Positions 4,451-23,594 of a stretch of DNA of 32,000 nucleotides are shown piece after piece; within the stretch, counting starts at the first letter, position 1, and every line of letters begins with the position of its first letter. The DNA is from Candidatus Lokiarchaeum ossiferum. GTDB lineage: Archaea > Asgardarchaeota > Lokiarchaeia > Sigyniarchaeales > Promethearchaeaceae. A program made the position numbers and the translations under genes. The stretch covers positions 2,610,001-2,642,000 of the forward strand of contig CP104013.1 of assembly GCA_025839675.1 (NCBI GenBank), written 5' to 3'. Under the pieces are notes generated by a model. That model saw only the letters and a program-made list of their open reading frames with translations, had not been told where the DNA came from and searched no databases.

Positions 4451-5266
4451 TTAATACTTCCCTCGTCGAGATTTCTTTGTGTATTTTCGTTTACTTATAG
4501 ATTTTCTTTTAGCCCGTTCTAAATCCCTTTCACTCATTTTAAAATATTCTTGATAATTATCAAAAGATTTTTTTTGTTGTGCCTTTTTTTGCTCCAATTT
4601 TTTATGTTCTATAGCTTTTTCAAAATCTTGACGTAATTGTTCGGATTTTTCTGAAGATTCAGATTCTTCTTGAGTTGATGAATCAAATTTTTTAGGTTTA
4701 TTCAATTCTAAGAAATCCGCAAAAGAAATCTGTTGTTTATAATATATTTTTCGATATTCTTCACGAACTCCGTCATCAATTTCCATGGGAACTTTGCTTA
4801 ACTCTAAGTCAATCTTCGTATCCAAAAGCTGTAAATAAAAATTTTGCAAATTCGATAAGATGGGTAAGAATTTGTCGGTCGTAAACAAAATTTGTTTTAT
4901 TTTAGTCCAGTAATCAGGGGATATCGAGGAGACCAAATGAGCAGTTCCAATTGATTTTTCTAAAATCTGATTACCTATGAAATATAATCCAATTTTTTGA
5001 GTTTGTAATGGATTTGCTTGATTTTGGATATCATTTATTATTTGGGATTGATAATCTTCAAAAATCACATTTTTTATGGGAGAAAAAATGGAATCGAGTC
5101 TTGAAAAGAGAGTGGATAATTTAGTTTTCACATTTTTCAAGGATTCAGGTAAATTTTCATATAATTCCATGTTTAAATCAAGATCTGAAAGATTTCCTCT
5201 AATCTGATCTGATATTTGTAAGATTTTCTGCAGGGAAGCCTTGTCAATTATTTGATTCTGAGACAT
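4451..5266 (-). CDS. operon gene 6: hypothetical protein with an acidic Ser/Glu patch and a strongly basic C-terminal tail
   Basis: 271 aa. It ends ...EESESSEKSEQLRQDFEKAIEHKKLEQKKAQQKK...RAKRKSISKRKYTKKSRRGKY. I recognise no family. Confidence 0.82.
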   Translation of the reverse strand: MSQNQIIDKASLQKILQISDQIRGNLSDLDLNMELYENLPESLKNVKTKLSTLFSRLDSIFSPIKNVIFEDYQSQIINDIQNQANPLQTQKIGLYFIGNQILEKSIGTAHLVSSISPDYWTKIKQILFTTDKFLPILSNLQNFYLQLLDTKIDLELSKVPMEIDDGVREEYRKIYYKQQISFADFLELNKPKKFDSSTQEESESSEKSEQLRQDFEKAIEHKKLEQKKAQQKKSFDNYQEYFKMSERDLERAKRKSISKRKYTKKSRRGKY

Positions 5267-5290
5267 TTTTCATTCACTTTGAAAAATTGA

Positions 5291-6397
5291 TTATAAATCG
5301 ATATCTAGGTCATCTAAATCATCAATTTTCGATGATTTATTTGAAATAGGGGAATTTGTGTTGGAAATAGCTGCATTATCAGCAGTATCAGGCGTAATGC
5401 CAGCAAGTTTCTGACTTTGGATAACATGAGTTTCAGTACCACCACACACTTCAAGTGATCTCATATAATCTTCATACAAGAGAACAGATTTCTTCAAAGC
5501 TTTAAATAAGGCAACTCGCATCGCTCGCATCAAATCTGCCCCAGTATAACCCAATGTATGGTACAGAAGACCTTCTAAATTTTTTTGTTTTAACTCAGTG
5601 AAAAGAGAATAATATTCAACATCGGTCAGCTCTCGCCCTAACTTCTTCTTTTGAGCATTATATTTATCAATAAGATAATCATATTCCTTTTTTAAAGAAC
5701 TTGTTAAACGCTTATCAATAGAAATTGTTGCTTTTTCAAGCCGAGTCAAAAAAGATTCCATGATTTGCTTCCTTACGATAAAATTAGGGAAAGGAAAGGA
5801 CAAATGATAGGTAAAACGCCGCCATACTGCACTATCTAATTGTTTTTCGTGATTGGTAGCTCCAAAAATTGCAAGAGGGATAGCGTCATAGGATATTTTA
5901 TCAATAATTTGTAAAAAGGAAATAACAGCCCTTTTAATTTCCCCAACTTCGTGTGCATTAGCCCTTTCACCGGTTATAGCATCAATTTCATCAAAAAACA
6001 ACAAAAATACGCCATTTTCCTTAGTGAATTCTGCAGCAAGATCAAACACACCTCTCATGTTTTTCACAGTATCCCCCAGCAATGGAGAAACTAAGCGATC
6101 GGCTTCAACAAGTCCCATTGGAATATCAAATTTCTTTGCCATCGCTCTTGTTAAAGCTGTTTTTCCAGTTCCTGGCGGCCCATAAAGTAACATTGTAAAA
6201 TTAGGAGTAATTTTCGCTTCCGCTAATCGGGGGGCAATATCTACATATTTTTTCAAACTTAAGAAAAAATCAGATAGCATTTCTTTTTTATCTTCTAAAC
6301 CAATGATATCGGTAATTTCTTCTTTAATATCTTCCGGAGTATAAATGGTACCAAATTTTTGAAACCGTTGGCGCATTTCTTCAACTGTAAAGGTCAT
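5291..6397 (-). CDS. operon gene 5: classic-clade AAA+ ATPase with a single AAA module and no N-terminal domain
   Basis: Walker A is LLYGPPGTGKT (GPPGTGKT at 6158-6181), Walker B is LLFFDEIDA, and the second region of homology is GATNHEKQLDSAVWRRF. A TGADL lid motif is present. Only ~65 aa precede the P-loop. The C-terminus is acidic: ...KIDDLDDLDIDL. Confidence 0.92.
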   Translation of the reverse strand: MTFTVEEMRQRFQKFGTIYTPEDIKEEITDIIGLEDKKEMLSDFFLSLKKYVDIAPRLAEAKITPNFTMLLYGPPGTGKTALTRAMAKKFDIPMGLVEADRLVSPLLGDTVKNMRGVFDLAAEFTKENGVFLLFFDEIDAITGERANAHEVGEIKRAVISFLQIIDKISYDAIPLAIFGATNHEKQLDSAVWRRFTYHLSFPFPNFIVRKQIMESFLTRLEKATISIDKRLTSSLKKEYDYLIDKYNAQKKKLGRELTDVEYYSLFTELKQKNLEGLLYHTLGYTGADLMRAMRVALFKALKKSVLLYEDYMRSLEVCGGTETHVIQSQKLAGITPDTADNAAISNTNSPISNKSSKIDDLDDLDIDL

Positions 6398-6425
6398 TTT
6401 TTTTCACTTCTACTACTAAATAATT

Positions 6426-7688
6426 TCAATCTTCTTTTTCAATTCCCAATAACTTTTCAAGTTCATCTACAAGATAAAATGTTAATTTATCAATTGCTTC
6501 AATCTTTCCACCAAGGAAATTAAACAATTCCTTACGATAAGTAGGAGAATCACGAATTTTCGTTCGATCAAGCCGTAAATATTTATCAAAACATAATAGC
6601 TTCATCAAATACGGCAAAATTTTTTCTTCTGTTTTCATATCCAGAAAAAGATTATAAAAAATGTTCTCGTCTGATAACACGGTGTGCAAGACTGCATTGT
6701 AAATAATGAAGGCAAAATTCATTGCAATCCAATTCACTAATTCTTTTGATAAAAAGCCCCTTCGGAAGGATGCTTTGGCAAGATATAAAAGAATTAGAGT
6801 TTCATTGCTAAATTGAGGAATCCAACGCGTTTTTCCATCCGAATCTTCTTGGGCAGCGACATACTTATGATCTTTAGCAAGTTCAATGAATTTTTCTGTA
6901 GGTCCAACAAAAATCCCCATTATTAGTTGTAATTCCATACGTTGAACAATTCGTTTAATTGATTCTTCTTCAGCATTAGCAATAGAATCTATATAAGGCT
7001 CAAATACATCAGAAATCATAATAGTAGGAATTACAAAATCTGGATTTTCTTCTAAATCCATGAAGTTTGGATCCAAATTGAAGAGAGAAGTAATATTATT
7101 AACAATTTGATAGGCTTTTGGGCTTAATCCGGGTACGGTCATTTCTCCAATTTTCTCTCTATAAAATGTTGTTGGCTGCAATAAATATCTCTGAGCATCA
7201 TACCATTCGGGAGAATTTTCAATAAGTTGGCTATAAATATCTTCCAATCGATTTCCTTGAGGAAATAACACTTCAATTAACATATTCGCAAGCTTTCCCA
7301 TAATTGATTCCGATTGTTTATTATAATCATCTTCAGCCAAATCCAATAATACATCAAAGGCTTTTAGCGCTTCATCAATAAAATCAAGAATATAATCTCG
7401 AATATCTTGCAAATTAAATTCAGAGTCTTCTTTTAATTCTTCGATATAATTAATAATGTGGCGATAAATTTCATTTCGGAAAAAAGCATTAAATTCTGTT
7501 AAGGATTTGACATTTTTTACCTTTCTTTTAGATTCTTCCTCCAAAATTTCCTTCAAGTTATCGATGTTTCCAAGTTGCTCCAAATCTAAATCAAGAATAG
7601 TTCGTTTGGTTTCATGAAGTAACGGTTGAATAATTGAAATGTAAGTCTTATAATACGCAACAATATCTTCCCATCTTTCTCGTGCCAT
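6426..7688 (-). CDS. operon gene 4: hypothetical helical protein, distant paralog of gene 3
   Basis: 420 aa. AGGAG lies 9 nt upstream of the ATG. I recognise no motif. Its C-terminal half aligns by eye with gene 3 (see findings). Confidence 0.85.
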   Translation of the reverse strand: MARERWEDIVAYYKTYISIIQPLLHETKRTILDLDLEQLGNIDNLKEILEEESKRKVKNVKSLTEFNAFFRNEIYRHIINYIEELKEDSEFNLQDIRDYILDFIDEALKAFDVLLDLAEDDYNKQSESIMGKLANMLIEVLFPQGNRLEDIYSQLIENSPEWYDAQRYLLQPTTFYREKIGEMTVPGLSPKAYQIVNNITSLFNLDPNFMDLEENPDFVIPTIMISDVFEPYIDSIANAEEESIKRIVQRMELQLIMGIFVGPTEKFIELAKDHKYVAAQEDSDGKTRWIPQFSNETLILLYLAKASFRRGFLSKELVNWIAMNFAFIIYNAVLHTVLSDENIFYNLFLDMKTEEKILPYLMKLLCFDKYLRLDRTKIRDSPTYRKELFNFLGGKIEAIDKLTFYLVDELEKLLGIEKED

Positions 7689-7718
7689 GATTTTTTCTCC
7701 TAATAAGTTTTAAAAAAA

Positions 7719-8846
7719 TTAATCAATATCTGAATCCCCCGAAACAGTTACTTCTTGGAATATAGAGCTGATCTCGACAAAAATAGGAATTTCCACACGA
7801 CAGAGGTTTCCTAAAACCCACTTATTAACATCTTTTATTAAGAATCGTGTTTGAAGATGTAACCGTTTTTGTGCATCACTTTTCTCAATTTTATCATACC
7901 ATTTAGAGGCACCTAATCTGAATGCGACAATTTCAATGGTGGCGGGTAGTAATTCTGTCAACACATTTTTCATCATCCAACTTTTTGGAATAACACTCAT
8001 CATCCCAGCATCAAATCCAGGATCTCGCAAAATAGGACTGTCTTCGGCCAATTTTACTTTGGGCATAAAGCTGAGTATTAATATAAGAGCAAAAATGGCG
8101 CAAATACCATTTATTTTGTAAGGATCTAAAGAATATCGATCAATTGCAAATCGTGCCAGAAAAAGAGCAGTAAAAACATTTTTATCAAAATCATCATTCA
8201 CCATTGTTTCGCCCTTTTCTGTTCGGATAACATAGGATCCTTCTAATAATTCAAGGATTTCTTCAGGAAAAGTATAAAATCGGACAACTTTTTCTTCACT
8301 TCGGGCCAGATCATGCTTAAAGATCCGCTCTTCCACCACAAGTCCCAAAAAATCGGCAATCTTATCCAATTGCTTTTGAATAGTTTTACGGGGTTTTTCG
8401 GGATTGCCAAACATAGCAAAAAAAGCGTAATCCGAGATTCGGAAATTTTTGGATTTTTTGAAGGCTTCAATTATGCGATCCACAATTGGTCCTTCCTTAA
8501 AAGATCCAAAAGATTTTGATTGGGATGCAATGAATCCATTGATAAGTTCGTTAATAACAAAAGAATTTTCGTGTTGTTGTTCTAGAGTTTTTAACACTTT
8601 AGCATAGGCTTCTCCTAAACTGGAAGTTCGAGGGAAGAATGAATTTTGAATCGATTCATCAATACTTTTTACCATTAGTTCACCATTATCCTTGGGAAGA
8701 TATCGTTTTAATTCCTCAAATCGGCGAATTAACTGATCTTTTGCCCCAGGAATGTTGTCAATATCTCTTTCTTTAATAAATTCGAGAGATTTGTCCAATG
8801 CCGTTGTAAAATTGCCTAATAATTCATTCCATAATGCCATTGCCAT
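7719..8846 (-). CDS. operon gene 3: hypothetical protein, distant paralog of gene 4
   Basis: The track ORF starts at TTG 8891 and overlaps gene 2 by 35 nt. The ATG at 8846 (MAMALWNELL...) is preceded by AGGTG about 8 nt upstream and lies 10 nt after the gene 2 stop, so I prefer it. The protein ends ...VSGDSDID. Confidence 0.82.
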   Translation of the reverse strand: MAMALWNELLGNFTTALDKSLEFIKERDIDNIPGAKDQLIRRFEELKRYLPKDNGELMVKSIDESIQNSFFPRTSSLGEAYAKVLKTLEQQHENSFVINELINGFIASQSKSFGSFKEGPIVDRIIEAFKKSKNFRISDYAFFAMFGNPEKPRKTIQKQLDKIADFLGLVVEERIFKHDLARSEEKVVRFYTFPEEILELLEGSYVIRTEKGETMVNDDFDKNVFTALFLARFAIDRYSLDPYKINGICAIFALILILSFMPKVKLAEDSPILRDPGFDAGMMSVIPKSWMMKNVLTELLPATIEIVAFRLGASKWYDKIEKSDAQKRLHLQTRFLIKDVNKWVLGNLCRVEIPIFVEISSIFQEVTVSGDSDID

Positions 8847-8856
8847 TTTATTACAC

Positions 8857-10083
8857 CTAATTTTTGTTAGATTCTTTATGTCGAGTCTCAATTTTTTTTA
8901 CGTGATTTAATAATTCTGTTTTTTTCATTCGTACCAAGGCCGTTTTGTTGTACTCGTTTGTTTCATCATTATCTAAGATCCAATGAACTATATCGACTTT
9001 CTTTGTCCGAATATAAGGTACTTCAGTAGAAGGACTAGATTTCTGACTTACAGATTTAGATTTGGTAGATTTTTTAAGAGATATTTGGTGAGCTTTAGCA
9101 TCTTCTTCTGCTTTCTTAGGATCAATTCCCTTCGCTTTCTGCCATTCAAGTTTCATCGTTTTCAATGCTTCAATCAATAATGGCACATGTTCCTTTTCAT
9201 AAATATTGGGAGACATCACACCTTTCTTGGTTTCCCAACGCAAACCTTGTGTATTGCCTAACGAATATTCGGTTGTCATGTAACGCTGTAAATTTCTTTG
9301 CCACCAATAAAAGCGCAACCATTTTTTTTCAGGATTTTCTTTCGCATAGATGGTGACTAATGCTTTCCAATCAGCCATAGTGGACCGAACACTAATTCCA
9401 TAGCTGGGAAGATAGAAATTTACAGGAAAATTTGTAGAGTAACTTAAAGGAAGTGCTTCTGAAGGATAATCAAATATTGGATGTCCTTCATCCAATACAA
9501 TGATTTCTCCACAACGTTCACATTCATAATATCGCTTGTTCTTACTTTTCTTCATCTTCCATTTACATTTTGGACAGATACGTTTCTTTAAATCAAATAC
9601 AAAATATTTATCTTCAATACCTGCACGTTCTGGAATCGGATCAAAGCTTATGGTGACATTTTCCTTAGGATTAAAATTCTCATCAAAATCTTCATTAATT
9701 CGGTTAAGGACAATCAAAATATTTTCTAATTCTTCAAAACTATCTATTTTGAACATCCCTGCATGGACATTGATCGATTTTTTCCACCATGAAATTCGCA
9801 GATATTTAATATTAGGAAAGTTGGGAGAATGACACATAAGTACAGCAATCCACCACTTGTCACGTTCTCTGGCAACAGTGATCCCAGAATCAGCAACTTC
9901 CCACTTAGGATTGAGGGCAGTATTCTTCATGAAAAATTCCCCATCTTTCAAAATAGATTCTTGGACTTCTATTTTTTCTTCTTGTATCAGACCACGAAAG
10001 ATTTTCCTACAATTAGAACAGTTCATTACCCCAGGTACAAGTTCTACTAACTCCCCAATCCCACAGCTCGGACATTTTGTCAT
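8857..10083 (-). CDS. operon gene 2: protein with two zinc-ribbon plus Trp-rich-domain modules and a basic linker
   Basis: Ribbon 1 is CPSC..x14..CSNC (aa 4-25) and ribbon 2 is CPKC..x14..CERC (aa 170-191). Each is followed by a ~90-aa domain containing DKWWIAVL...YLRISWWKK or DWKALVTI...WLRFYWWQR. A K/S-rich linker and a small helical C-terminal domain follow. Confidence 0.85.
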   Translation of the reverse strand: MTKCPSCGIGELVELVPGVMNCSNCRKIFRGLIQEEKIEVQESILKDGEFFMKNTALNPKWEVADSGITVARERDKWWIAVLMCHSPNFPNIKYLRISWWKKSINVHAGMFKIDSFEELENILIVLNRINEDFDENFNPKENVTISFDPIPERAGIEDKYFVFDLKKRICPKCKWKMKKSKNKRYYECERCGEIIVLDEGHPIFDYPSEALPLSYSTNFPVNFYLPSYGISVRSTMADWKALVTIYAKENPEKKWLRFYWWQRNLQRYMTTEYSLGNTQGLRWETKKGVMSPNIYEKEHVPLLIEALKTMKLEWQKAKGIDPKKAEEDAKAHQISLKKSTKSKSVSQKSSPSTEVPYIRTKKVDIVHWILDNDETNEYNKTALVRMKKTELLNHVKKIETRHKESNKN

Positions 10084-10145
10084 ATTTGATCAGTTTCTCA
10101 CTTTAAAATTAATATTTTTTTATTCTCAGGAAAAATAGATGTTGT

Positions 10146-11300
10146 TCAATCATCGTCATCATCATCAAGTCCTTCTTCAATTATTAATCGCTCTACATCT
10201 AAATTTATTATTTTTAATTCCTTCTTGGAATAATCTGCCAGGGTTGTGCTGATTTGTTTTAACGCGTTCCGAGCTTCAATTAAGAGATTTTTAATGATTT
10301 CTGAAATATTATCTTCATCATAGGTAGATTTTGTAATAAAAGTCATATAGGGCATAATTTGTTTTTTACCAGAATAATATGCGCGTAATTTATCCATTTT
10401 TGCATTTATTTCATCAAAAGTTAGCTTTAAACCAATTAGGATGTTGAATGTATTTCTCCATTCTTGATATTCTTCAGGTATTTCATCCTTTGGAAATTCG
10501 ACCCGGAATTTTGAAGATAGAGATTTTTTTCGGGATTTTTCCTGAAGATATTTAAGAAAATCCGTTTTTTTCAAGTCCTTTGCCTTTCGGAATTTCTTCA
10601 TCATTGTCGATTTATAAATTTCTTTATCATACAACCCCAGATAATCATTCAAATCTTGTTCAATTTCCGTGTATTTATCCGCCATAGCTCGAATCATAAT
10701 TTCGATTCGTAAAGCTTGATAGGGATTTCCAAGTTCCTCTATTATATAATAAAAATCATCATCGATAACATAATAATCGCCGTATTTATGAACTAATTCA
10801 TGAATAACGGAAGTTTTAGGACACATCATTGCACGCAACCTTTCCAATGATGCATGAATGCGAACTTGAGTCATTTCCCTTATATCGGGGACAATCACTC
10901 GTTCTAAGAGATTTTCTTGGAAAAATATATGTACTTCTTCTTCCGATTCAGATAGTTCTTCTCGGGCCAATTTAAGCCCACTCGCTAACCGAATTTTGAT
11001 ATGATCCCCTTTCATTTGAAAAACAGAGTGATTTTTAATGTTTGTAATAATGTGAAATTGAAATAGAGATTTTATTAAGTCTGGAGAGCAAATTCGCCTT
11101 AGATCCCCCGCAGTGGGTTCATCGACGTCCATAATGGTTTCAAATTCATCCATCAAATCATCGTCCAAAAGATCTTGAAATAATTCTTTCCGTAAAATAA
11201 ACATGTAAAGAGCAACGTATCGGAGATCGGGAGAATCAAAGACATCTTCTAACAATTCCCTATCATATTCCATTTCCAAAGTTTTATGTTGTTCAGCCAT
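10146..11300 (-). CDS. operon gene 1: hypothetical acidic protein with an HExxH motif and a hexa-Asp C-terminus
   Basis: The track ORF starts at TTG 11312. The ATG at 11300 (MAEQHK...) has GGTGG 5-6 nt upstream. It contains SVIHELVHKY (HELVH at 10788-10802) and ends EEGLDDDDDD. Confidence 0.82.
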   Translation of the reverse strand: MAEQHKTLEMEYDRELLEDVFDSPDLRYVALYMFILRKELFQDLLDDDLMDEFETIMDVDEPTAGDLRRICSPDLIKSLFQFHIITNIKNHSVFQMKGDHIKIRLASGLKLAREELSESEEEVHIFFQENLLERVIVPDIREMTQVRIHASLERLRAMMCPKTSVIHELVHKYGDYYVIDDDFYYIIEELGNPYQALRIEIMIRAMADKYTEIEQDLNDYLGLYDKEIYKSTMMKKFRKAKDLKKTDFLKYLQEKSRKKSLSSKFRVEFPKDEIPEEYQEWRNTFNILIGLKLTFDEINAKMDKLRAYYSGKKQIMPYMTFITKSTYDEDNISEIIKNLLIEARNALKQISTTLADYSKKELKIINLDVERLIIEEGLDDDDDD

Positions 11301-11468
11301 TAGAACCACCAAGGGGAAATACCACTAATTTGCGGTAGAGGTCGTAAAAAAGATAAGTTGGTTAATGTTTATTTACCAAAAAAGTTTTCGTTTTTGACAA
11401 TAAGACAACGGTGTAGCTAAAGGTAAAAACTTTGAAAATCAACAAAAACTAATTTTAATTGAAAACCT

Positions 11469-16367: not shown

Positions 16368-17366
16368 ATGCGCTCTTTCGAAAGAAAAGTTCCCAAATTA
16401 ATTAAAGAAATAATTTTAAATCGGGAAGGATACCAAAATTTACCACAAATTGCCCCTTTATGGAGCGCACAGCTTGAAGAAATACAGCACTTATTTGAGA
16501 AAATACAGGCACACATTCCAAATATAGTATATTTGGAACAAATTAGTAAACATTTTTCTGATGTTCTAATCATTGGTGATATTCATGGAGACATAATGTC
16601 ACTTTTAAAGATAATTGAACCATTTCTTCAAGAACAAGTCGAGTCTTTAGTTTTTTTGGGAGATTACGTTGATCGAGGAAGGTATAATTTCCAATGTCTA
16701 TTACTAATTATTGCTTTGTCTATTGCATGGCCAGATCGAGTAATAATATTAAGAGGAAATCATGAGGATATAGATATCAATCAATTATTTGGTTTTTATC
16801 AGGAATTAGAAGCATTTTTCCCCATCACTCATGAATTTAGCAAAGTTATCGCCAGCATTAATGAAATTTATAATAATATGTCTTTAATTGCTATCACCCC
16901 CAATCATTCTATTTGCATGCATGCAGGAATTCCGAAGAATATCACAAACTTACATTTACTTAACTACTTTCCAAAACCTCATTATAATTTCTCCCAGAAT
17001 TTTAGTAACCTTTCAAAAACGGATAAAGATAAAGTATGGGAAGCTTTCGTTCAATTACGTTGGAATGATCCAACAGAAGTATATAAGTTTCCGACCGCCC
17101 GTTCTTATCATGGATATTTCTATTATAATAGAAGTGAAATTATTCGTTTTCTTAAAGAAAACCGTCAACAACGGATAATTAAGTCCCATGAATCTCTCCG
17201 AGGTGGATTTGAATCACTATTTGATTCTATGTTGCTTCACATTTTTTCTACAGAACCTTATGACTATAAAATAGAGAAAGCTTTTGTAATTCATGAATCC
17301 CCAAGTAGTCAAATCACGTTAAGGGATTTAAATTTCAATCAAGTTAAAATTTTAAATTCCCAGTAG
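16368..17366 (+). CDS. PPP-family Ser/Thr protein phosphatase (metallophosphoesterase)
   Basis: The canonical PPP motifs occur in order: GDIHGD, GDYVDRG, LRGNHE, and a later HAG(I) His. Confidence 0.88.
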   Translation: MRSFERKVPKLIKEIILNREGYQNLPQIAPLWSAQLEEIQHLFEKIQAHIPNIVYLEQISKHFSDVLIIGDIHGDIMSLLKIIEPFLQEQVESLVFLGDYVDRGRYNFQCLLLIIALSIAWPDRVIILRGNHEDIDINQLFGFYQELEAFFPITHEFSKVIASINEIYNNMSLIAITPNHSICMHAGIPKNITNLHLLNYFPKPHYNFSQNFSNLSKTDKDKVWEAFVQLRWNDPTEVYKFPTARSYHGYFYYNRSEIIRFLKENRQQRIIKSHESLRGGFESLFDSMLLHIFSTEPYDYKIEKAFVIHESPSSQITLRDLNFNQVKILNSQ

Positions 17367-18035: not shown

Positions 18036-18656
18036 ATGGGTAGACGAAAACGAAAGAAAATAACCTATCGCCCGGTAAGATCATTGCCTAAAATCTTTAC
18101 ATGTCCGAAATGTGGACATAAGACTATGAAAGCAAACTTGAAACATGCAGAAGATCGAGTGTTAATAGTTTGTGGGCATTGTGGAGAACAACAAGCAGTA
18201 GGAAAACATGAATTAACCGAACCCGTTGATGCTTTCGGTGATTTTATTGATATTTATTATAAAGATCAAGAATATGAACGATTAACCAGAAGAGAAGAAA
18301 AATTACTGGAAAAACAACAATATTCTGAATTAAGTCTAGTTTATTCCTTTCTCAGCGACACTGCACAAATCAATGCGGATAAAGCCCTTGAAGAGTATGA
18401 GTTAAATAAAGATCCGGAAGATCTTTCTAACGCTGAACAATGGCAAGAAACCGCCCGTCAATATAAAGAAAATGAAAAGAAATTAACTGAACAGTTGAAA
18501 TCTGGGGTGATTGTCGACGCTGAGCTTGAAGACGAAGTTTATGACGAAATTGAAGACAATCCCTTCGATGAAGGAGAAGCGAAGATTTCAGAAAAACCGA
18601 AACGGAAATCCAACATCGAAGATGTCTTGGGTGATTTAGGTTTCTTAGAATTTTAG
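18036..18656 (+). CDS. elf1: transcription elongation factor Elf1 homolog with a long acidic C-terminal extension
   Basis: MGRRKRKK...FTCPKCGHKT...VCGHCGEQQAV..HELTEPVDAFGDFIDIYY parallels eukaryotic Elf1: a basic N-tail, a C4 zinc ribbon and the L(S/T)EPVDVYxDWID block. About 130 additional E/D/K-rich residues follow. Confidence 0.85.
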   Translation: MGRRKRKKITYRPVRSLPKIFTCPKCGHKTMKANLKHAEDRVLIVCGHCGEQQAVGKHELTEPVDAFGDFIDIYYKDQEYERLTRREEKLLEKQQYSELSLVYSFLSDTAQINADKALEEYELNKDPEDLSNAEQWQETARQYKENEKKLTEQLKSGVIVDAELEDEVYDEIEDNPFDEGEAKISEKPKRKSNIEDVLGDLGFLEF

Positions 18657-18663
18657 TTTCCCC

Positions 18664-18669
18664 TTTTTT
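18664..18669 (+). terminator. oligo-T tract after elf1
   Basis: CCCCTTTTTTATC begins a few nt after the TAG stop. Confidence 0.35.
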
Positions 18670-18798
18670 ATCTTTCTCCCATTGATTAGAAAATTTTTGT
18701 CATGGGTTTTTTACCAATAAAAACATATTAATAAATATAGGGTTTTTTCATGTTTCAATGAAAAAACGTAAAATTAAGGACTTTAGGCGATTAAACGA

Positions 18799-19257
18799 AT
18801 GGCAGAAGAATTCTTCAATACAATGAACACATACTCTGAGCAGCCTTTAAAAGAACGCGTGGAAGGTTTAGCTGATGTGATTGAGAAAATCATGTCGATA
18901 ACATTAAAAATTCCAGAGATGACAGATGCTTCAATTCAAATCTTAAACTCAAGTATAACAAACCTGTCAACCAAAGTTTCAAGCATTGAGGCACGATTAA
19001 ATCAATTGGATTCAAAATTAACAACATTACAATCTTCCGGGGGAATTGCTGCCCCAGCAAATGGATCTGCACCACCACCACCTCCAGGAAGAACTCCTGG
19101 ATCTCCACCACCTCCCCCTGGAAGAGCCCCTCCACCTCCAGGCAGAGCCCCCCCTGCTCAAGCACCAGCAAATCCTGTATCACTTCGTGGAAGTATAATG
19201 GATGAATTGAAAACTCTGTTTAGTAAGCGTCGAACTGATGACGATGATGATGATTAA
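18799..19257 (+). CDS. coiled-coil, polyproline, amphipathic-helix, hexa-Asp protein
   Basis: 152 aa. The N-terminus is heptad-like (ITNLSTKVSSIEARLNQLDSKLTTLQ). Next comes APPPPPGRTPGSPPPPPGRAPPPPGRAPPAQAP (nt 19051-19176), a GC-rich island. Then SLRGSIMDELKTLFSKRR (19177-19236) and a terminal DDDDDD (19237-19254). Confidence 0.85.
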   Translation: MAEEFFNTMNTYSEQPLKERVEGLADVIEKIMSITLKIPEMTDASIQILNSSITNLSTKVSSIEARLNQLDSKLTTLQSSGGIAAPANGSAPPPPPGRTPGSPPPPPGRAPPPPGRAPPAQAPANPVSLRGSIMDELKTLFSKRRTDDDDDD

Positions 19258-19307
19258 TCATCTTCTTTTTTCACTTAAAATGGCCCCTATTAAGTTGATT
19301 GCCTAAA

Positions 19308-20222
19308 ATGGAAGATTCTCACTTAACCCCACCACATCCGAAGCCGGAATTTATTCCTCAAGTGAGTCTTCTTCAAATTATTGGATATTTTTTCTTTATT
19401 GTGGCAATTTGGGCAATACCTATTGCAAGCGTACTGATGTTAGGTATTATTTACATTAAACGAGTATTGATCCCAGATATCCAGATCTATGCAAATCCAT
19501 TATTGGTAGTTCAAAATGCATTTAATGGAAATGTAAAATTTCTTCTTATATCTCTCGCTACTCCAGCAGGAATATTGTTACTTTACTTATTTGAACTATT
19601 TTTAGTGGCTCTATTGACAAAAATATTCATTGGATACTGTAATTATCTCTCTCCAGAAAAAGAAATGGTGGGAGCAAAGGGTTTAGGAGGAGATGAACAA
19701 CGAGATGTGGACATATATCATTTACGTGGAGCTATTTATCGGATTATGAAATGGATTTTTGCACGATGTCCTTTTCCCTGGTTAATAAAATGGGCTTTTT
19801 CTTTTGCAGGAAACAACAAATATGGAAAGGGAACTGTGCTTGAGGATCAATATTATTGTCAAGAATTCTTTGAAACTGGAGAAAATGTCTATATAGACAA
19901 ATTAGCAATTGTTAGTTCCCATTTAGTAGAAGGAGCATATGGAGCAATTACTTTAAAGAAGGTTCATGTTGGAGATAATTGTGTCATTGGGGCTAACGTC
20001 GGTGTTTCACCAGGGGCATTTATGGAACCAAATTCTGAAATTGTGAATAATTCCATGGTTCCCAAGTTTAAGAAGTTCAAGTCTGGGGCAAAATATCATG
20101 GGATTCCCGTAAAAAAAATGAGTCTTGAAGAATATGAACAATTATTACATTTAACGACAACGGATAAATCAAATCCCGCTAATATTAAACAAATTCAACA
20201 GAATGAAACAGAACAAAGGTAA
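19308..20222 (+). CDS. membrane-anchored hexapeptide-repeat (left-handed beta-helix) protein, type A, copy 1
   Basis: The track start is TTG 19299, with an ATG at 19308. Two N-terminal TM helices are followed by PFPWL and imperfect hexapeptide repeats (GKGTVLEDQ...GENVYIDKLAIVSSHLVEGAYGAITLKKVHVGDNCVIGANVGVSPGAFMEPNSEIV). Confidence 0.8.
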   Translation: MEDSHLTPPHPKPEFIPQVSLLQIIGYFFFIVAIWAIPIASVLMLGIIYIKRVLIPDIQIYANPLLVVQNAFNGNVKFLLISLATPAGILLLYLFELFLVALLTKIFIGYCNYLSPEKEMVGAKGLGGDEQRDVDIYHLRGAIYRIMKWIFARCPFPWLIKWAFSFAGNNKYGKGTVLEDQYYCQEFFETGENVYIDKLAIVSSHLVEGAYGAITLKKVHVGDNCVIGANVGVSPGAFMEPNSEIVNNSMVPKFKKFKSGAKYHGIPVKKMSLEEYEQLLHLTTTDKSNPANIKQIQQNETEQR

Positions 20223-20231
20223 CAGAAAAAA

Positions 20232-21434
20232 ATGTCGAGTACAGTACCAACAACATTACGGGCTGGTCCCGCAACAACAAATACATTGGCGTCACAAAGT
20301 TTTACTGCAATATATGGACTGATCATATGGTTAGCTTTAATTCCATGCTTCTTTCTAACCACCAAACTAATTACATTATTTGATGATACCCTTCTTTTTA
20401 TTGCCCTGATTTTACCAATCTTTATATTCCTAATCTATTTTATTTTTTTTGTTTCAGTAATTCTTTGGTCTGCGGTAATTCTCAAAACAGTTAATTTGAT
20501 TCATACTCCCAAGGAAGGAATTTTTCCACGAGATAATAAAAACCGCGATTATAAATTCTGGAGTTTACGAGCAGTAATAAAAAAATTTCCATTATGGGTG
20601 TGCCATAATGTCGGTCCCTTCCCATGGACTGATGTTTTTGCTATGAAAGTATTTGGAAATCATGTGACCTATAAGTCTCCAGTGTTTGATGCTTGGGTTG
20701 ATGCAGAATTCATGGATATCGGACGGGGCACAACTATCGGTCAAGGGGTGGTTATTATGACATCAATGATCACTACCGACTTTTTAATAATCAAAAGAGT
20801 AAAAATTGGCAAAAATGCGGTGATTGGAGCGCATTCGGTAATATCACCTGGAACAAAAATAGGAGATAATGCCATTATTGGAGCTTTAAGTGCCACTGAG
20901 ATTGACCAGGAAATAGAAAGTGATTTTGTGTATATGGGGAATCCGGCAAGAAAAATCCGAAAAGCTGCATTCAAAATTAAAGATGAGCTATCGGCCCATG
21001 AACGAGCCCTTCAGAAGAAATATGATGAAATTAAAGCGAAAATTCCTGAAATTGAGCCAAAAAGACATATTGTCGGTACTAAAGCAAGTTTGCAATTGCA
21101 TAAAAGTGAATTCAAGGAAAAACGAGCGATGCATCACGAAGAAAAAGCATATGTTAAACAAGCTAAAGCGAAATCCAAAGCTCGTAAAAGTGAATATAAG
21201 ATTGAAAGACTACAATTTAAAGCAGATAAGCATATTTATAAAGCAGAAAAGCAGAAATATGAATCCATTTTAGCTATGCAAAAAGCTCAGCGGGCAATTA
21301 ATGAAAAGATCGAAAAAGATCGCCATAAATTGCAAAAAATAGAAAATACGGAGAGAGAGAGAGAAATCAAAGATAAACGTCATATAACTTTCCGATTAAA
21401 AAAGAAATCAACCGAAACTAAGGCGGAAGAATAA
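20232..21434 (+). CDS. membrane-anchored hexapeptide-repeat protein, type B, copy 1, with a K/R/E-rich coiled-coil tail
   Basis: The conserved N-peptide MSSTVPTTLRAGPATTNTL is followed by 2-3 TM helices, FWSLR...PFPW, and LbH repeats (IGRGTTIGQGVVI...VKIGKNAVIGAHSVISPGTKIGDNAIIGALS...YMGNPA). A ~160-aa charged tail follows. The start lies 9 nt after the A1 stop. Confidence 0.85.
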   Translation: MSSTVPTTLRAGPATTNTLASQSFTAIYGLIIWLALIPCFFLTTKLITLFDDTLLFIALILPIFIFLIYFIFFVSVILWSAVILKTVNLIHTPKEGIFPRDNKNRDYKFWSLRAVIKKFPLWVCHNVGPFPWTDVFAMKVFGNHVTYKSPVFDAWVDAEFMDIGRGTTIGQGVVIMTSMITTDFLIIKRVKIGKNAVIGAHSVISPGTKIGDNAIIGALSATEIDQEIESDFVYMGNPARKIRKAAFKIKDELSAHERALQKKYDEIKAKIPEIEPKRHIVGTKASLQLHKSEFKEKRAMHHEEKAYVKQAKAKSKARKSEYKIERLQFKADKHIYKAEKQKYESILAMQKAQRAINEKIEKDRHKLQKIENTEREREIKDKRHITFRLKKKSTETKAEE

Positions 21435-21502
21435 GTTTTCTTTTTTTTTATTTACAACCAAATGCTTTTTTAATTCGCTTAACTTTAAATTACTCGATTT
21501 TC

Positions 21503-22417
21503 ATGGAAGAAGCGGGTGAAGAAAAACAAACAAATTCAAATTCTTCACAAGGATTTATTCCTCGAGCCAGATTAGAATTGGATAAATATTTTATTGTTAT
21601 TGTGCTTATATGGGGATATTCTTGGCTTATTCCAGTTGCGATTCTTTATCAGTACTACAATTTATTAATTCAACCAGACCTACACATTTATGCTAGTGTC
21701 ATCCAAATTTTTTCTTCTGAAAAATACATTTTAGTTTTTTTTCTTTCCCCAGTTGTTCTTATTGGACTTTACCTATTTAGGTTGTTTTTCGTAATTTTGT
21801 TCAGTAAAATTGCAATTTGGTTATGCAACCTCCGATCTCCCATGAAAGAATTAATTGCATCAAAGGGAATTGGGAAGGAAGAAGCAAGAGACATTAATAT
21901 TTATCATCTAAGGGGGATGATCCTTAGGATATTAAAATGGGAAATCAGTAAATCTCCTTTTCCATGGTTAGTTCCTGCAGCGTTTAACTTTGTGAATGTG
22001 AGTGAAATTGGTAAGGGAACCACTTTGGAAGATCAATTTTACACGCAAGAATTTCTCGAAACGGGAGAAAATGCATATATTGGCCAAGGATCAATAGTTA
22101 GTTCGCATTTGGTTGAGGGAAAATATGGCGCAATCACTTTGAAAAAAGTTAGAATTGGTCAAAATGCAGTTCTTGGACCATTTAATCCAATTTCTCCAGG
22201 AGCTTTGATAGGAGACTATGCTGAATTCTTACCAATGAGCGGAGTTGCTAAATTTCAAAAAGTTCGTGGATTTTCAAAATATTATGGGCTCCCAGTTGCG
22301 AGAATCAGTACCAAGCGATATATTAAAATGTGTCAAATTCCCCCAGAATTAGAATTTCGCGTTCGAGACACAAAATTATTAAAAAGAAAAGTTAAAAAGA
22401 AGAAAACGGAAGAATAA
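21503..22417 (+). CDS. membrane-anchored hexapeptide-repeat protein, type A, copy 2
   Basis: Collinear with 19308..20222 and roughly half identical by eye, e.g. IYHLRG..L.I.KW......PFPWL, GKGT.LEDQ.Y.QEF.ETGEN.YI, IVSSHLVEG.YGAITLKKV. Confidence 0.85.
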   Translation: MEEAGEEKQTNSNSSQGFIPRARLELDKYFIVIVLIWGYSWLIPVAILYQYYNLLIQPDLHIYASVIQIFSSEKYILVFFLSPVVLIGLYLFRLFFVILFSKIAIWLCNLRSPMKELIASKGIGKEEARDINIYHLRGMILRILKWEISKSPFPWLVPAAFNFVNVSEIGKGTTLEDQFYTQEFLETGENAYIGQGSIVSSHLVEGKYGAITLKKVRIGQNAVLGPFNPISPGALIGDYAEFLPMSGVAKFQKVRGFSKYYGLPVARISTKRYIKMCQIPPELEFRVRDTKLLKRKVKKKKTEE

Positions 22418-22421
22418 CATC

Positions 22422-23594
22422 ATGTCAAGTAGCATCCCAGCCAGTTTAAAATCTGGACCGAGCACAACAAATACTTTAGTTTCCAAAGGATATTTAGTAA
22501 TCTATTTCATTATAATGTGGTTGTCTATTATGCCTCCATTTCTACTAACTTTGATATTTCTTGATAACTTTAAAATTGAAATGGTATATCTTCTCTGGAG
22601 TTTTCCCTTATTTTTAATAATTGGATATCTTGTTTTATTTTTCTCGGTGATTTTTTGGTCTTGGGTAATTTTAAAGGTCGTAAATTGGATCCATCCTCCA
22701 AAAGAAGGCGTGTTTCCACGTGAAGCAAAGAATAAAGATTTCCGATTTTGGAGTTTAAGATCGGTGATTAAGAAACTACCGCTTTGGATCTCCCACAATT
22801 CCCCCATACCATGGGGAGATTCCATCGCATTTAAGTTGTTTGGGAATCATGTTTCCATGAAGACACCGTTGTTTGATGCTTGGATCGATGCAGAATTCTT
22901 AGAAATAGGTACAGGGACAACGATTGGTCAAGGTGCAGTAATCATGACTTCAATGATCACCGTGGAATTTCTAATCATAAAACCGGTCAAAATCGGAAAG
23001 GATTGTCTCATTGGAGCTCACTCCGTTGTATCTCCAGGAACTCAAATAGAAGATCAAGTTATTTTGGGAGCATTAAGTAGTACGACTTTAGGGCAACACC
23101 TAGAGAGCAGCTGGGTTTATTGGGGTAATCCAGCCATAAAATTTAAAGAAATGGCATTTAGAGAACGTGATACATTATCTCCTGAAGAAAGAGCGAAAAT
23201 GAAAAAATATCGAGAAGTCACCGAAGAGTTATCGGATACTGCGGAATTAAAAGGTCGTAAAAGTGCGAAGGCGTTTATTCAAATTCAAAAGAGTGATTAT
23301 AAGGAGCGAAAAGCCTCAAGATTGCAGGCAAGATCAGATTATCAAAGATCAAAAGCCGCATATAAGGCACGTAAACTTGAATTACGCGCAGACAAGAAGC
23401 AAATTAGAGCAGAAAAACAAAGCTTTGACTCATTACGTGCTTTAGAAAAAGCTAAACTTTCGTTGGAAGCAAAAATTCAGAAAAACCGTAGTAAATTAGA
23501 TAGCATCGAAAAGAAAGAATTTGAGAAGGAATCGAAACGATTAGAAAAAAAAAGACTCAAAAAAGAGCGAAAACTGCAACATCATCAAAAATAA
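22422..23594 (+). CDS. membrane-anchored hexapeptide-repeat protein, type B, copy 2, with a K/R/E-rich coiled-coil tail
   Basis: Collinear with 20232..21434, e.g. MSSSIPASLKSGPSTTNTL, PKEG.FPR, FWSLR.VIKK.PLW, FDAW.DAEF..IG.GTTIGQG.VIMTSMIT, IGAHSV.SPGT, GNPA. It has an equivalent charged tail. The start lies 4 nt after the A2 stop. Confidence 0.87.
   Translation: MSSSIPASLKSGPSTTNTLVSKGYLVIYFIIMWLSIMPPFLLTLIFLDNFKIEMVYLLWSFPLFLIIGYLVLFFSVIFWSWVILKVVNWIHPPKEGVFPREAKNKDFRFWSLRSVIKKLPLWISHNSPIPWGDSIAFKLFGNHVSMKTPLFDAWIDAEFLEIGTGTTIGQGAVIMTSMITVEFLIIKPVKIGKDCLIGAHSVVSPGTQIEDQVILGALSSTTLGQHLESSWVYWGNPAIKFKEMAFRERDTLSPEERAKMKKYREVTEELSDTAELKGRKSAKAFIQIQKSDYKERKASRLQARSDYQRSKAAYKARKLELRADKKQIRAEKQSFDSLRALEKAKLSLEAKIQKNRSKLDSIEKKEFEKESKRLEKKRLKKERKLQHHQK

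Follow-up and report, generated by a model that had tools for sequence, protein, structure and literature searches.

An undescribed Asgard archaeal protein family with a coiled coil, a proline-rich linker and a conserved C-terminal helix: a candidate actin-cytoskeleton factor

The locus and its protein

The stretch of DNA analysed here, called the window throughout, comprises 32,000 nucleotides of the Candidatus Lokiarchaeum ossiferum genome (assembly GCA_025839675.1, contig CP104013.1, positions 2,610,001 to 2,642,000 of the forward strand), and coordinates given without a locus label are positions within it. At 18799-19257 on the plus strand lies a gene for a small protein of 152 amino acids that, judged from its homologues, appears to belong to an Asgard-specific family which has been neither annotated nor described. 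On computational evidence throughout, the architecture of this protein, together with a set of gelsolin and small-GTPase proteins that share its N-terminal domain, points to an undescribed factor of the actin cytoskeleton, and one that would fall outside both the WASP and the Ena/VASP families. The gene and its immediate surroundings were divided as follows, with the basis of each assignment in brackets.

18799-19257, plus strand: open reading frame (ORF) with an ATG start, 152 amino acids, full protein MAEEFFNTMNTYSEQPLKERVEGLADVIEKIMSITLKIPEMTDASIQILNSSITNLSTKVSSIEARLNQLDSKLTTLQSSGGIAAPANGSAPPPPPGRTPGSPPPPPGRAPPPPGRAPPAQAPANPVSLRGSIMDELKTLFSKRRTDDDDDD (ORF list and translation)
18799-18933, plus strand: helical N-domain, residues 1-45 (family alignments, AlphaFold2, hhalign)
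18934-19032, plus strand: heptad coiled coil, residues 46-78, the presumed oligomerisation element (a/d pattern in 116 sequences)
19033-19173, plus strand: disordered Pro/Gly-rich linker, residues 79-125, equivalent to the GC island (GC content, AlphaFold2 confidence, family composition)
19072-19140, plus strand: 33-bp (11-codon) tandem duplication within the proline-rich linker (Tandem Repeats Finder, 2.1 copies, 77% matches)
19174-19236, plus strand: C-motif, PVSLRGSIMDELKTLFSKRRT (residues 126-146), made up of an amphipathic helix and, after it, a basic K-R-R patch (conservation, AlphaFold2, hhalign)
19237-19254, plus strand: hexa-aspartate tail, residues 147-152, lineage-specific (present only in close relatives)
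18657-18798, plus strand: AT-rich spacer between genes that includes a TATA-like stretch, TTAATAAATATA, at ~18728-18739; presumed promoter of the gene itself (sequence, by eye)
19262-19271, plus strand: oligo-T run, CTTCTTTTTT, a few bases 3' of the stop codon, resembling an archaeal terminator (sequence, by eye)

The ORF is real, and its translation reads exactly as the initial annotation had described it, with the helix, the basic patch and the DDDDDD tail in that order. Residues 92-119 (PPPPPGRTPGS PPPPPGRAP PPPGRAP) form the three PPPP(P)GR(A/T)P units that had been singled out there as a GC-rich island, and the two do coincide: GC content rises to 0.63 at 19050-19149, against ~0.25-0.40 in the surroundings. 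On the 3' side of the proline repeats the translation continues with SLRGSIMDELKTLFSKRR, then T, then DDDDDD. An AlphaFold2 model of the protein, built on the family alignment, contains helices at residues 2-13 and 17-78, with a predicted local distance difference test score (pLDDT) >90 over 21-70, a disordered stretch at residues 79-125 (pLDDT <50) and a further helix at 126-149 (pLDDT ~86). The model yields no fold suited to a structure search, and neither a signal peptide nor a transmembrane segment is present in the protein.

With an AT-rich, TATA-like region upstream and an oligo-T run downstream, the gene looks like a separate transcription unit. A sigma-70 promoter scan is not applicable to archaea, and the TATA-like stretch was read by eye. 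Antisense ORFs over the proline-rich region (18890-19183 and 19027-19161, minus strand) were set aside as shadows of the GC-rich codons, and an Rfam scan of the whole window returned no RNA family.

Distribution and anatomy of the family

A search of 5.8 billion proteins, clustered at 90%, returned 151 matches of ~130-180 aa, all of them full-length. Those that carry a name are each a 'hypothetical protein' of Lokiarchaeota/Promethearchaeota, Thorarchaeota or Hodarchaeota, and no Pfam domain was found in any of the 151 homologues. HMMER, run exhaustively with the family profile over 1.84 billion representatives, gave 323 matches at E<=1e-3, while a scan of one genome per GTDB species located the gene in 115 genomes. 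Homologues in such numbers place the conservation of the ORF well beyond chance. The best 80 of the 115 genomes are all Asgard or labelled 'uncultured archaeon'; carriers include Promethearchaeum syntrophicum MK-D1 and Ca. Harpocratesius as well as Hermod-, Hod-, Thor- and Odinarchaeota. The MK-D1 protein, from the window's nearest clade, is 55% identical to the window protein. Pfam, NCBIfam and PDB sequence searches with the 152-aa protein gave no match above threshold, and the matches below it (TBK1_CCD1, Baculo_PEP_C, trimeric adhesins and, at E 0.14, BRICK1) are coiled-coil noise.

The anatomy of the family, and all counts that follow from it, were taken from 116 aligned members. The N-domain (residues 1-45) has the consensus MAEEF..PLEEKLN.FGDIVEKIM..IL.IPDLVD.S, in which E29, M32 and P39 are invariant. 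It is followed by canonical heptads, which span residues 46-70 across the family and extend to 78 in the window protein, with I/L/V at the a positions and I/V/L/M at the d positions. The N-terminal heptads noticed in the single sequence are thus a family trait, as the a/d positions 46, 49, 53, 56, 60, 63, 67 and 70 are 89-100% hydrophobic. A PDB profile search found coiled coils only, most of them trimeric, although the a/d residue pattern cannot give the oligomer number.

The linker that joins the coiled coil to the C-motif measures 36-70 aa (median 52) and is composed of 38% Pro and 19% Gly. Its sequence and length drift, yet at least one run of three or more prolines is kept in 116/116 members and at least two such runs in 76%. 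The longest run is of five prolines in 77 of the 116 members and of six or seven in 26.

Conservation of the C-terminal motif

The best conserved part of the family protein is the C-motif, with the consensus R-P-A-[SN]-P-V-S-L-R-[GSA]-[AS]-I-M-[GDS]-E-L-K-x-L-F-[ASKN]-K-R-[KRNQ]. L129, R130, I133, E136, L137, K138 and F141 are invariant, and M134, L140, K143 and R144 are at least 95% conserved. Variation is confined to helix positions 3, 6, 10 and 13, which form one stripe along the helix, and the remaining surface is fixed, including the charged R, E, K, K and R. To judge by this alignment, the C-helix is under strong purifying selection across Asgard phyla, in a pattern that fits burial in a partner's groove.

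Both the alignment and AlphaFold2 place a single helix between the proline-rich region and the C-terminus. An L-[KR]-[KR]-[TV] motif is found in none of the 116 members, the sequence logo ending in L-F-x-K-R-[KRNQ]. Beyond the basic patch comes a short tail that varies between members. It holds at least three acidic residues in 10 of the 116, all close relatives of the window protein, and Trp in none. The acidic (A) region of WASP, to which the initial annotation had compared the hexa-aspartate tail, therefore has no counterpart in the family at large. Of the three elements whose conservation among orthologues it had proposed to check, the helix and the basic K-R pair are near-invariant, and the acidic tail is not conserved.

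Comparison with eukaryotic actin-binding helices

The C-motif was compared by hhalign with the short actin-binding helices of the WASP and Ena/VASP proteins. WH2 sequences of WASP/N-WASP were taken from PDB entries 2A3Z, 2VCP and 6UHC, and C regions from 6UHC, 2VCP and 1EJ5; the Ena/VASP set was fetched with a VASP EVH2 sequence as query, which is 100% identical to the database VASP. The highest score was obtained with the F-actin-binding block (FAB) of Ena/VASP (21.5, probability 64%, P 6.4e-5, 20 columns), in the register RGaIMgELKxLFxKRr / GGgLMeEMsamLARRRk. None of 600 column shuffles reached this score (mean 8.0, standard deviation 2.15, maximum 16.4). The G-actin-binding block (GAB, KLRKV) of the same proteins scored 9.9 (probability 0.9%, P 0.062).

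Likeness to WASP was the starting point of the initial annotation, which had aligned the helix by eye both with the WH2 helix and with the connector region. The first of these likenesses is marginal, with a score of 11.5 (P 0.02) over 12 helix-only columns that was reached by 6 of 200 column shuffles. As to the second, similarity to the WASP/N-WASP C helix is modest (14.3, P 0.0046, reached by 1 of 200 shuffles), and the family has its single helix only, with no separate C helix.

Reciprocal searches with hidden Markov models (HMMs) were made against a background of 1291 unrelated Asgard ORFs (388,000 residues). With the HMM of the Asgard motif, the FAB of EVL ranked first and 8 of the top 12 hits were FABs in register, and with the FAB HMM the top 25 hits were all C-motifs of the family, the best at 11.8 bits against a background maximum of 0.8. 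An hmmscan of six C-terminal peptides with Pfam WH2 (PF02205) gave no match at E<=10, a negative that carries little weight because the same model also misses the GAB and FAB of the real VASP, ENAH and EVL. A word-indexed search of the 5.8 billion proteins with the C-motif profile returned just two family fragments from 36 candidates. By inspection, two further kinds of helix were rejected, namely the ESCRT-III MIM1 motif ((D/E)xxLxxRLxxL[KR]), whose acidic and Arg positions misfit, and the calmodulin-type 1-5-10 or 1-8-14 basic helix, whose anchor spacing misfits.

In Ena/VASP proteins the GAB is WH2-like, and the same has been proposed for the FAB, which determines how tightly VASP binds F-actin; no structure of a FAB with actin exists (PMC3034019; Breitsprecher et al. 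2011).

Family tails often have the form [KR][KR]x(x)S/T with acidic residues after it (KRRT-DDDDDD in the window), which, speculatively, resembles a kinase site; in VASP, phosphorylation beside the FAB has a regulatory role. The window also encodes, at 16368-17366 on the plus strand, a calcineurin-like metallophosphatase (Pfam 6.9e-22) with the motifs GDIHGD, GDYVDRG and GNHE, the signature of the eukaryote-type PPP Ser/Thr protein phosphatases. Any link between this enzyme and a phosphosite in the family tail is pure speculation.

Fusions with gelsolin domains and small GTPases

What appears to be the strongest independent clue comes from larger proteins into which parts of the same scaffold have been built. 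The N-domain (window residues 17-69) is homologous to a domain of protein P0335 (hhalign probability 98.2%, E 5e-14) and of P0334 (97.9%). In P0335 (560 aa), a Rab-like GTPase is followed by a gelsolin domain, the N-domain, a second gelsolin domain and a Zn finger, with matches to Pfam Ras (2e-38), to the Thor Rab 7EZB (1e-27) and, above threshold, to Pfam Gelsolin (3e-8). In P0248 the N-domain and coiled coil are followed by a gelsolin domain, whose matches include Lokiarchaeota 2DGel (PDB 7WHG, E 9e-11) and human gelsolin (1.7e-5). In P0302 and P0334 the N-domain follows a gelsolin domain, which matches 7C2F, a Thor gelsolin-like protein, at 4.5e-4. In these gelsolin-bearing relatives, an established actin-binding domain fills the slot that is held in the window protein by the proline-rich linker and C-motif. 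P0336 consists of a Rab-like GTPase, the N-domain, PPPP/PPPPPP runs and a Zn finger, and in P0261 the C-motif is internal and is followed by Zn-finger and leucine-rich repeat (LRR) domains.

Rab-like GTPase, gelsolin, N-domain, polyproline and C-terminal Zn finger recur in various combinations in the metagenome proteins P0335, P0334, P0336 and P0251. In the literature searched, we found no description of a small GTPase covalently joined to actin-severing domains.

The full module also occurs behind an Arf-like GTPase, in P0254, P0266, P0282, P0284, P0298 and P0310 (394-464 aa). Here the order is GTPase, N-domain, coiled coil, proline-rich linker and then the C-motif, for example SLRGAIMGELKELFAKKK. 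The GTPases are Arf/RagA-like (Pfam Arf 1e-19 to 6e-24; motifs GLDNAGKT and WDxGGQ), and one of these proteins is named 'ADP-ribosylation factor-like protein' by NCBI. An AlphaFold2 model of P0282, built on a 7-sequence alignment, had a mean pLDDT of 59.7 with the module <50, and was uninformative on docking of the helix to the GTPase; the gene context of two Arf fusions held no informative neighbours. At one locus, two paralogous genes for an Arf-like GTPase plus module lie side by side in tandem (L087:466-1650 and L087:1868-3127), and the second of them ends in PPPPPPPPP...SARAAIVRELQELFAQRRKFMEL, a divergent C-motif.

A comparable arrangement has been described in Thor 1DGelX, in which a gelsolin domain is joined to an uncharacterised coiled-coil 'domain X' that its authors think binds filaments. 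The whole protein nucleates, severs and bundles actin, and domain X alone could not be produced (PMC7444086; bioRxiv 768580). As published, domain X lies behind a ProGel-like gelsolin domain and is predicted to be a coiled coil (Akil et al. 2020), and by that description the family N-domain is likely to be the same kind of module as domain X of 1DGelX (KXH72031.1). The window protein differs from 1DGelX/GelX in having no gelsolin domain, the proline-rich linker and C-motif standing in its place. Co-immunoprecipitation with Lokiactin from L. ossiferum enriches GelX and a 38.1-kDa 'Arf' (UYP48373.1) of about twice the normal Arf size (bioRxiv 2025.11.30.690169). That size would be compatible with a putative Arf plus module fusion.

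Gene neighbourhood

Gene order was compared across 85 loci, whose ORFs were called and clustered. In 74 of them, the gene that directly precedes the family gene, in the same orientation, encodes a 207-aa all-helical protein (for example L014:9245-9865, L001:7247-7870 and L004:7235-7858); the mean column identity of this protein between phyla is 77%, and the two genes may form an operon. Elf1, too, is close by in 74 of the 85 loci, one or at most two genes away from the family gene. A ~580-aa protein is encoded between the two in 45 of the 85, and in most non-Promethearchaeum Asgard genomes (L014:10648-12390), and neither it nor the 207-aa protein has a match in Pfam, NCBIfam or PDB. Beyond Elf1, a conserved six-gene run encodes first four unknown proteins, then an AAA ATPase and finally a further unknown protein, while Pelota, two radical-SAM enzymes and an acetyltransferase are found upstream in Asgard loci. 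In the clade of the window (MK-D1 and relatives) the block is rearranged, and the 207-aa and 580-aa genes are not adjacent to the family gene. Its neighbour in the window is the following.

18036-18656, plus strand: gene for the zinc-ribbon transcription elongation factor Elf1, directly upstream of the family gene (Pfam Zn_ribbon_Elf1, E 1.5e-16)

The six-gene run, which is kept near Elf1 in 45-67 of the 85 loci, lies in the window at 4451-11312 on the minus strand (10146-11312, 8857-10083, 7719-8891, 6426-7688, 5291-6397 and 4451-5266) and is inverted there relative to most Asgard genomes. It encodes four proteins without a family match, an AAA+ ATPase (5291-6397, Pfam AAA 1.1e-24) and one unknown protein. 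On the other side of the family gene, at 19299-23594 on the plus strand, four paralogues lie in tandem (307, 400, 304 and 390 aa). In these, N-terminal membrane segments are predicted, together with a hexapeptide/left-handed beta-helix region (Pfam Hexapep up to 2e-10), and the 400-aa protein (20232-21434) ends in a long Lys/Glu-rich tail. Two to four such hexapeptide paralogues follow the family gene in 8 loci, all of the Promethearchaeum-like clade.

One contig labelled Candidatus Nanopelagicaceae bacterium (L055, DATKTW010000134.1) carries the family gene in complete Asgard order, with Pelota, radical SAM, the 207-aa gene, the family gene, Elf1 and the operon of unknown proteins. Given the full Asgard synteny, this is probably an Asgard contig that was mis-binned into a bacterial metagenome-assembled genome.

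A candidate actin adaptor

The reading that we tentatively favour is that the family protein is an oligomeric Asgard actin adaptor, working like a minimal and permuted Ena/VASP EVH2 module. The EVH2 region of Ena/VASP proteins is made up of a proline-rich region, the GAB and FAB blocks and a tetramerising coiled coil. The family protein is like it in having a (G)PPPPP-type proline-rich region directly before a short amphipathic helix with a basic end, a C-helix in register with the FAB ([IL]M.E[LM]..[LIM][FL][AS][KR][RK][RK]), and a coiled coil, which would make the protein multivalent. It differs in that EVH1/WH1, the Pfam domain VASP_tetra and GAB/KLRKV are all missing, the N-terminus being a helical domain unrelated to EVH1, and the order is permuted, with an N-terminal coiled coil of ordinary heptads and one actin-type helix per chain, not two. 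VASP_tetra (PF08776) gave no match in the family protein, while the same model finds every real Ena/VASP at 1e-16 to 1e-18. The family protein is also small, at ~150 aa compared with ~380 aa for human VASP.

Under the mechanism that we propose, the N-domain and the heptad coiled coil would assemble a cytosolic parallel dimer or higher oligomer, as the heptads suggest, in which each chain bears a flexible polyproline-type arm ending in one amphipathic helix and basic patch. The C-helix would then bind actin in the manner of the WH2-like FAB of Ena/VASP, a step suggested by the FAB resemblance, the groove-bound pattern of conservation and the gelsolin fusions of the same scaffold. With one helix per chain, such an oligomer would be multivalent, and it could tether or bundle Lokiactin filaments or stay on the growing filament end. 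Like the proline-rich parts of Ena/VASP and the FH1 regions of formins, the PPPPP runs may also recruit profilin-actin; no other step is as weak, given the reported failure of Loki and Odin profilins to bind VASP polyproline. Finally, small-GTPase signalling is probably wired to the module, since related proteins carry it behind an Arf-like or Rab-like GTPase.

Several points weigh against an actin adaptor of this kind. The profilins of Loki and Odin are reported without VASP polyproline binding, and those of Heimdall and Thor with weak binding (as cited in PMC8410842). The FAB likeness spans ~15-20 residues at low absolute HMM scores (5-12 bits), and a look-elsewhere discount applies to it, as the FAB was hand-picked before testing. 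A profile search of all PDB chains with the C-motif alone gave 0 matches at E<=10. Moreover, Dictyostelium and mammalian VASP have substantially different FABs (PMC3034019); since the FAB is poorly conserved even among eukaryotes, common descent with the C-motif is unlikely, while convergence or coincidence is possible. The resemblance seems better read as that of one type of helix than as shared ancestry. Across the 85 loci, no actin, profilin or gelsolin gene lies near the family gene, where Elf1, Pelota, radical-SAM and unknown proteins are found instead, so that synteny offers no direct hint of function. In addition, membrane-targeting sequences classically take the form of an amphipathic helix with a basic tail, a point taken up below.

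Alternative explanations

A rather less likely explanation is that the C-motif is a docking helix for a conserved partner that is neither actin nor membrane. Candidates include a small GTPase or its regulator, gelsolin, profilin, the 207-aa protein, and a component of transcription or translation, as in the Elf1/Pelota neighbourhood. The joining of an oligomerisation domain, a flexible linker and a conserved terminal peptide is a general design for recruitment, shared by the ribosomal stalk proteins and the FtsZ C-terminal peptide, and would suit such a partner. So would the operon-like position of the 207-aa gene and the proximity of Elf1, each in 74 of the 85 loci. However, the clade of the window, MK-D1 included, keeps the motif unchanged without an adjacent 207-aa gene, and the gene order near Pelota and Elf1 may be mere ancestral synteny. 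This explanation also leaves the gelsolin fusions and the specific resemblance to the FAB unaccounted for.

It is unlikely, and slightly more so, that the C-helix and basic patch act as a membrane anchor, either as a targeting sequence of the MinD/FtsA type or as a polybasic tail of the GTPase type. The proline-rich region would then be a stiff spacer, and the partner of the N-domain, possibly actin filaments or a GTPase, would be tethered to the inner face of the membrane. One face of the helix does carry L, I, M, L, L and F, with K-R-[KR] coming after the helix, and the linker is free in length and sequence (36-70 aa), as a spacer may be. In the Arf/Rab-like fusions, the succession of G-domain, flexible region and basic helix copies the layout of the hypervariable linker and anchor of small GTPases. 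Membrane-targeting helices, however, usually keep their amphipathicity and not their identity, whereas here R130, E136 and K138 are invariant, M134 is at least 95% conserved and three quarters of the surface is fixed. The acidic tail of the window protein and its relatives, where motif and tail together have a net charge of ~-3, would oppose anionic lipids, and in P0261 the motif is internal, with Zn-finger and LRR domains after it.

A nucleation-promoting factor of the WASP/WAVE type, whose helix would serve as both V and C regions and whose acidic tail would activate an Arp2/3-like complex as the A region, is largely refuted and now very improbable: the window protein does have its proline-rich region, helix, basic patch and D6 tail in WASP order, and its helix bears the weak similarities to WH2 and C region given above, but the A region is not conserved (10/116 tails, none with Trp), LKK[TV] is absent, the helix is single, the WH2 score is matched by 6 of 200 shuffles, and a 2025 study of L. 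ossiferum names only profilins and gelsolins as known actin regulators of Promethearchaeota.

What stands of the initial annotation is its general idea of a small actin factor in which a proline-rich stretch precedes a helix of the actin-binding type, an idea to which the FAB similarity and the fusion of the N-domain to gelsolin domains and GTPases lend weight; the PRD-V/C-A layout of WASP that it had assigned to the protein does not hold. The likeness to WH2/WASP proteins comes down to a short helix that follows a proline-rich region and starts, in the family, with RGxI[ML]xEL, similar to RGALLDQI in WH2 and to VGALMxVM in the C region, and the difference to the missing LKK[TV] and the Trp-bearing acidic A region, which the family does not conserve.

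Relation to other systems

The bacterial effectors VopL/VopF and BimA combine multimerisation, a proline-rich stretch and several canonical WH2 repeats, and act on host actin. By description, the family protein follows the same design logic; a sub-threshold NCBIfam match of its proline-rich region to BimA (E 0.031) is most likely compositional. It is distinguished from formins by having no FH2 domain, and indeed no Pfam domain at all in its 152 aa. In the full-text literature on Asgard WH2, VASP and polyproline/profilin, we found no stand-alone WH2- or VASP-like Asgard protein described, the subjects found being an LKKT-like linker inside 2DGel gelsolins, studies of profilin and general reviews.

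Significance for Asgard actin biology

The established actin regulators of Asgard archaea are profilins and gelsolins only, and the question on which the family may bear is how Lokiactin is nucleated, elongated, bundled and attached. The family is a candidate for a missing assembly or tethering factor of Asgard actin. It also offers a likely identity, and a stand-alone form, for 'domain X' of 1DGelX. More broadly, the fusions suggest a modular toolkit of X-domain, proline-rich linker, C-motif, gelsolin and Arf-like or Rab-like GTPases that would link small-GTPase signalling to archaeal actin. As the protein is small, widespread (it occurs in Hodarchaeales and in the cultured MK-D1) and easily expressed, these hypotheses are testable by mutation. 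Even if the helix binds membrane or another partner, the family would still be a conserved, Asgard-specific adaptor that is worth naming.

The most far-reaching version of the actin adaptor is a doubtful one: an oligomer that recruits profilin-Lokiactin through its PPPPP runs, holds filaments by its WH2/FAB-like helix and is plugged into GTPases and gelsolins would be the missing filament-assembly factor of Asgard archaea. If this were true, the eukaryotic scheme on which WASP, Ena/VASP and formins rely, a small GTPase combined with a proline-rich region and a short helix that binds actin, would predate eukaryogenesis and would already have been in place in archaea.

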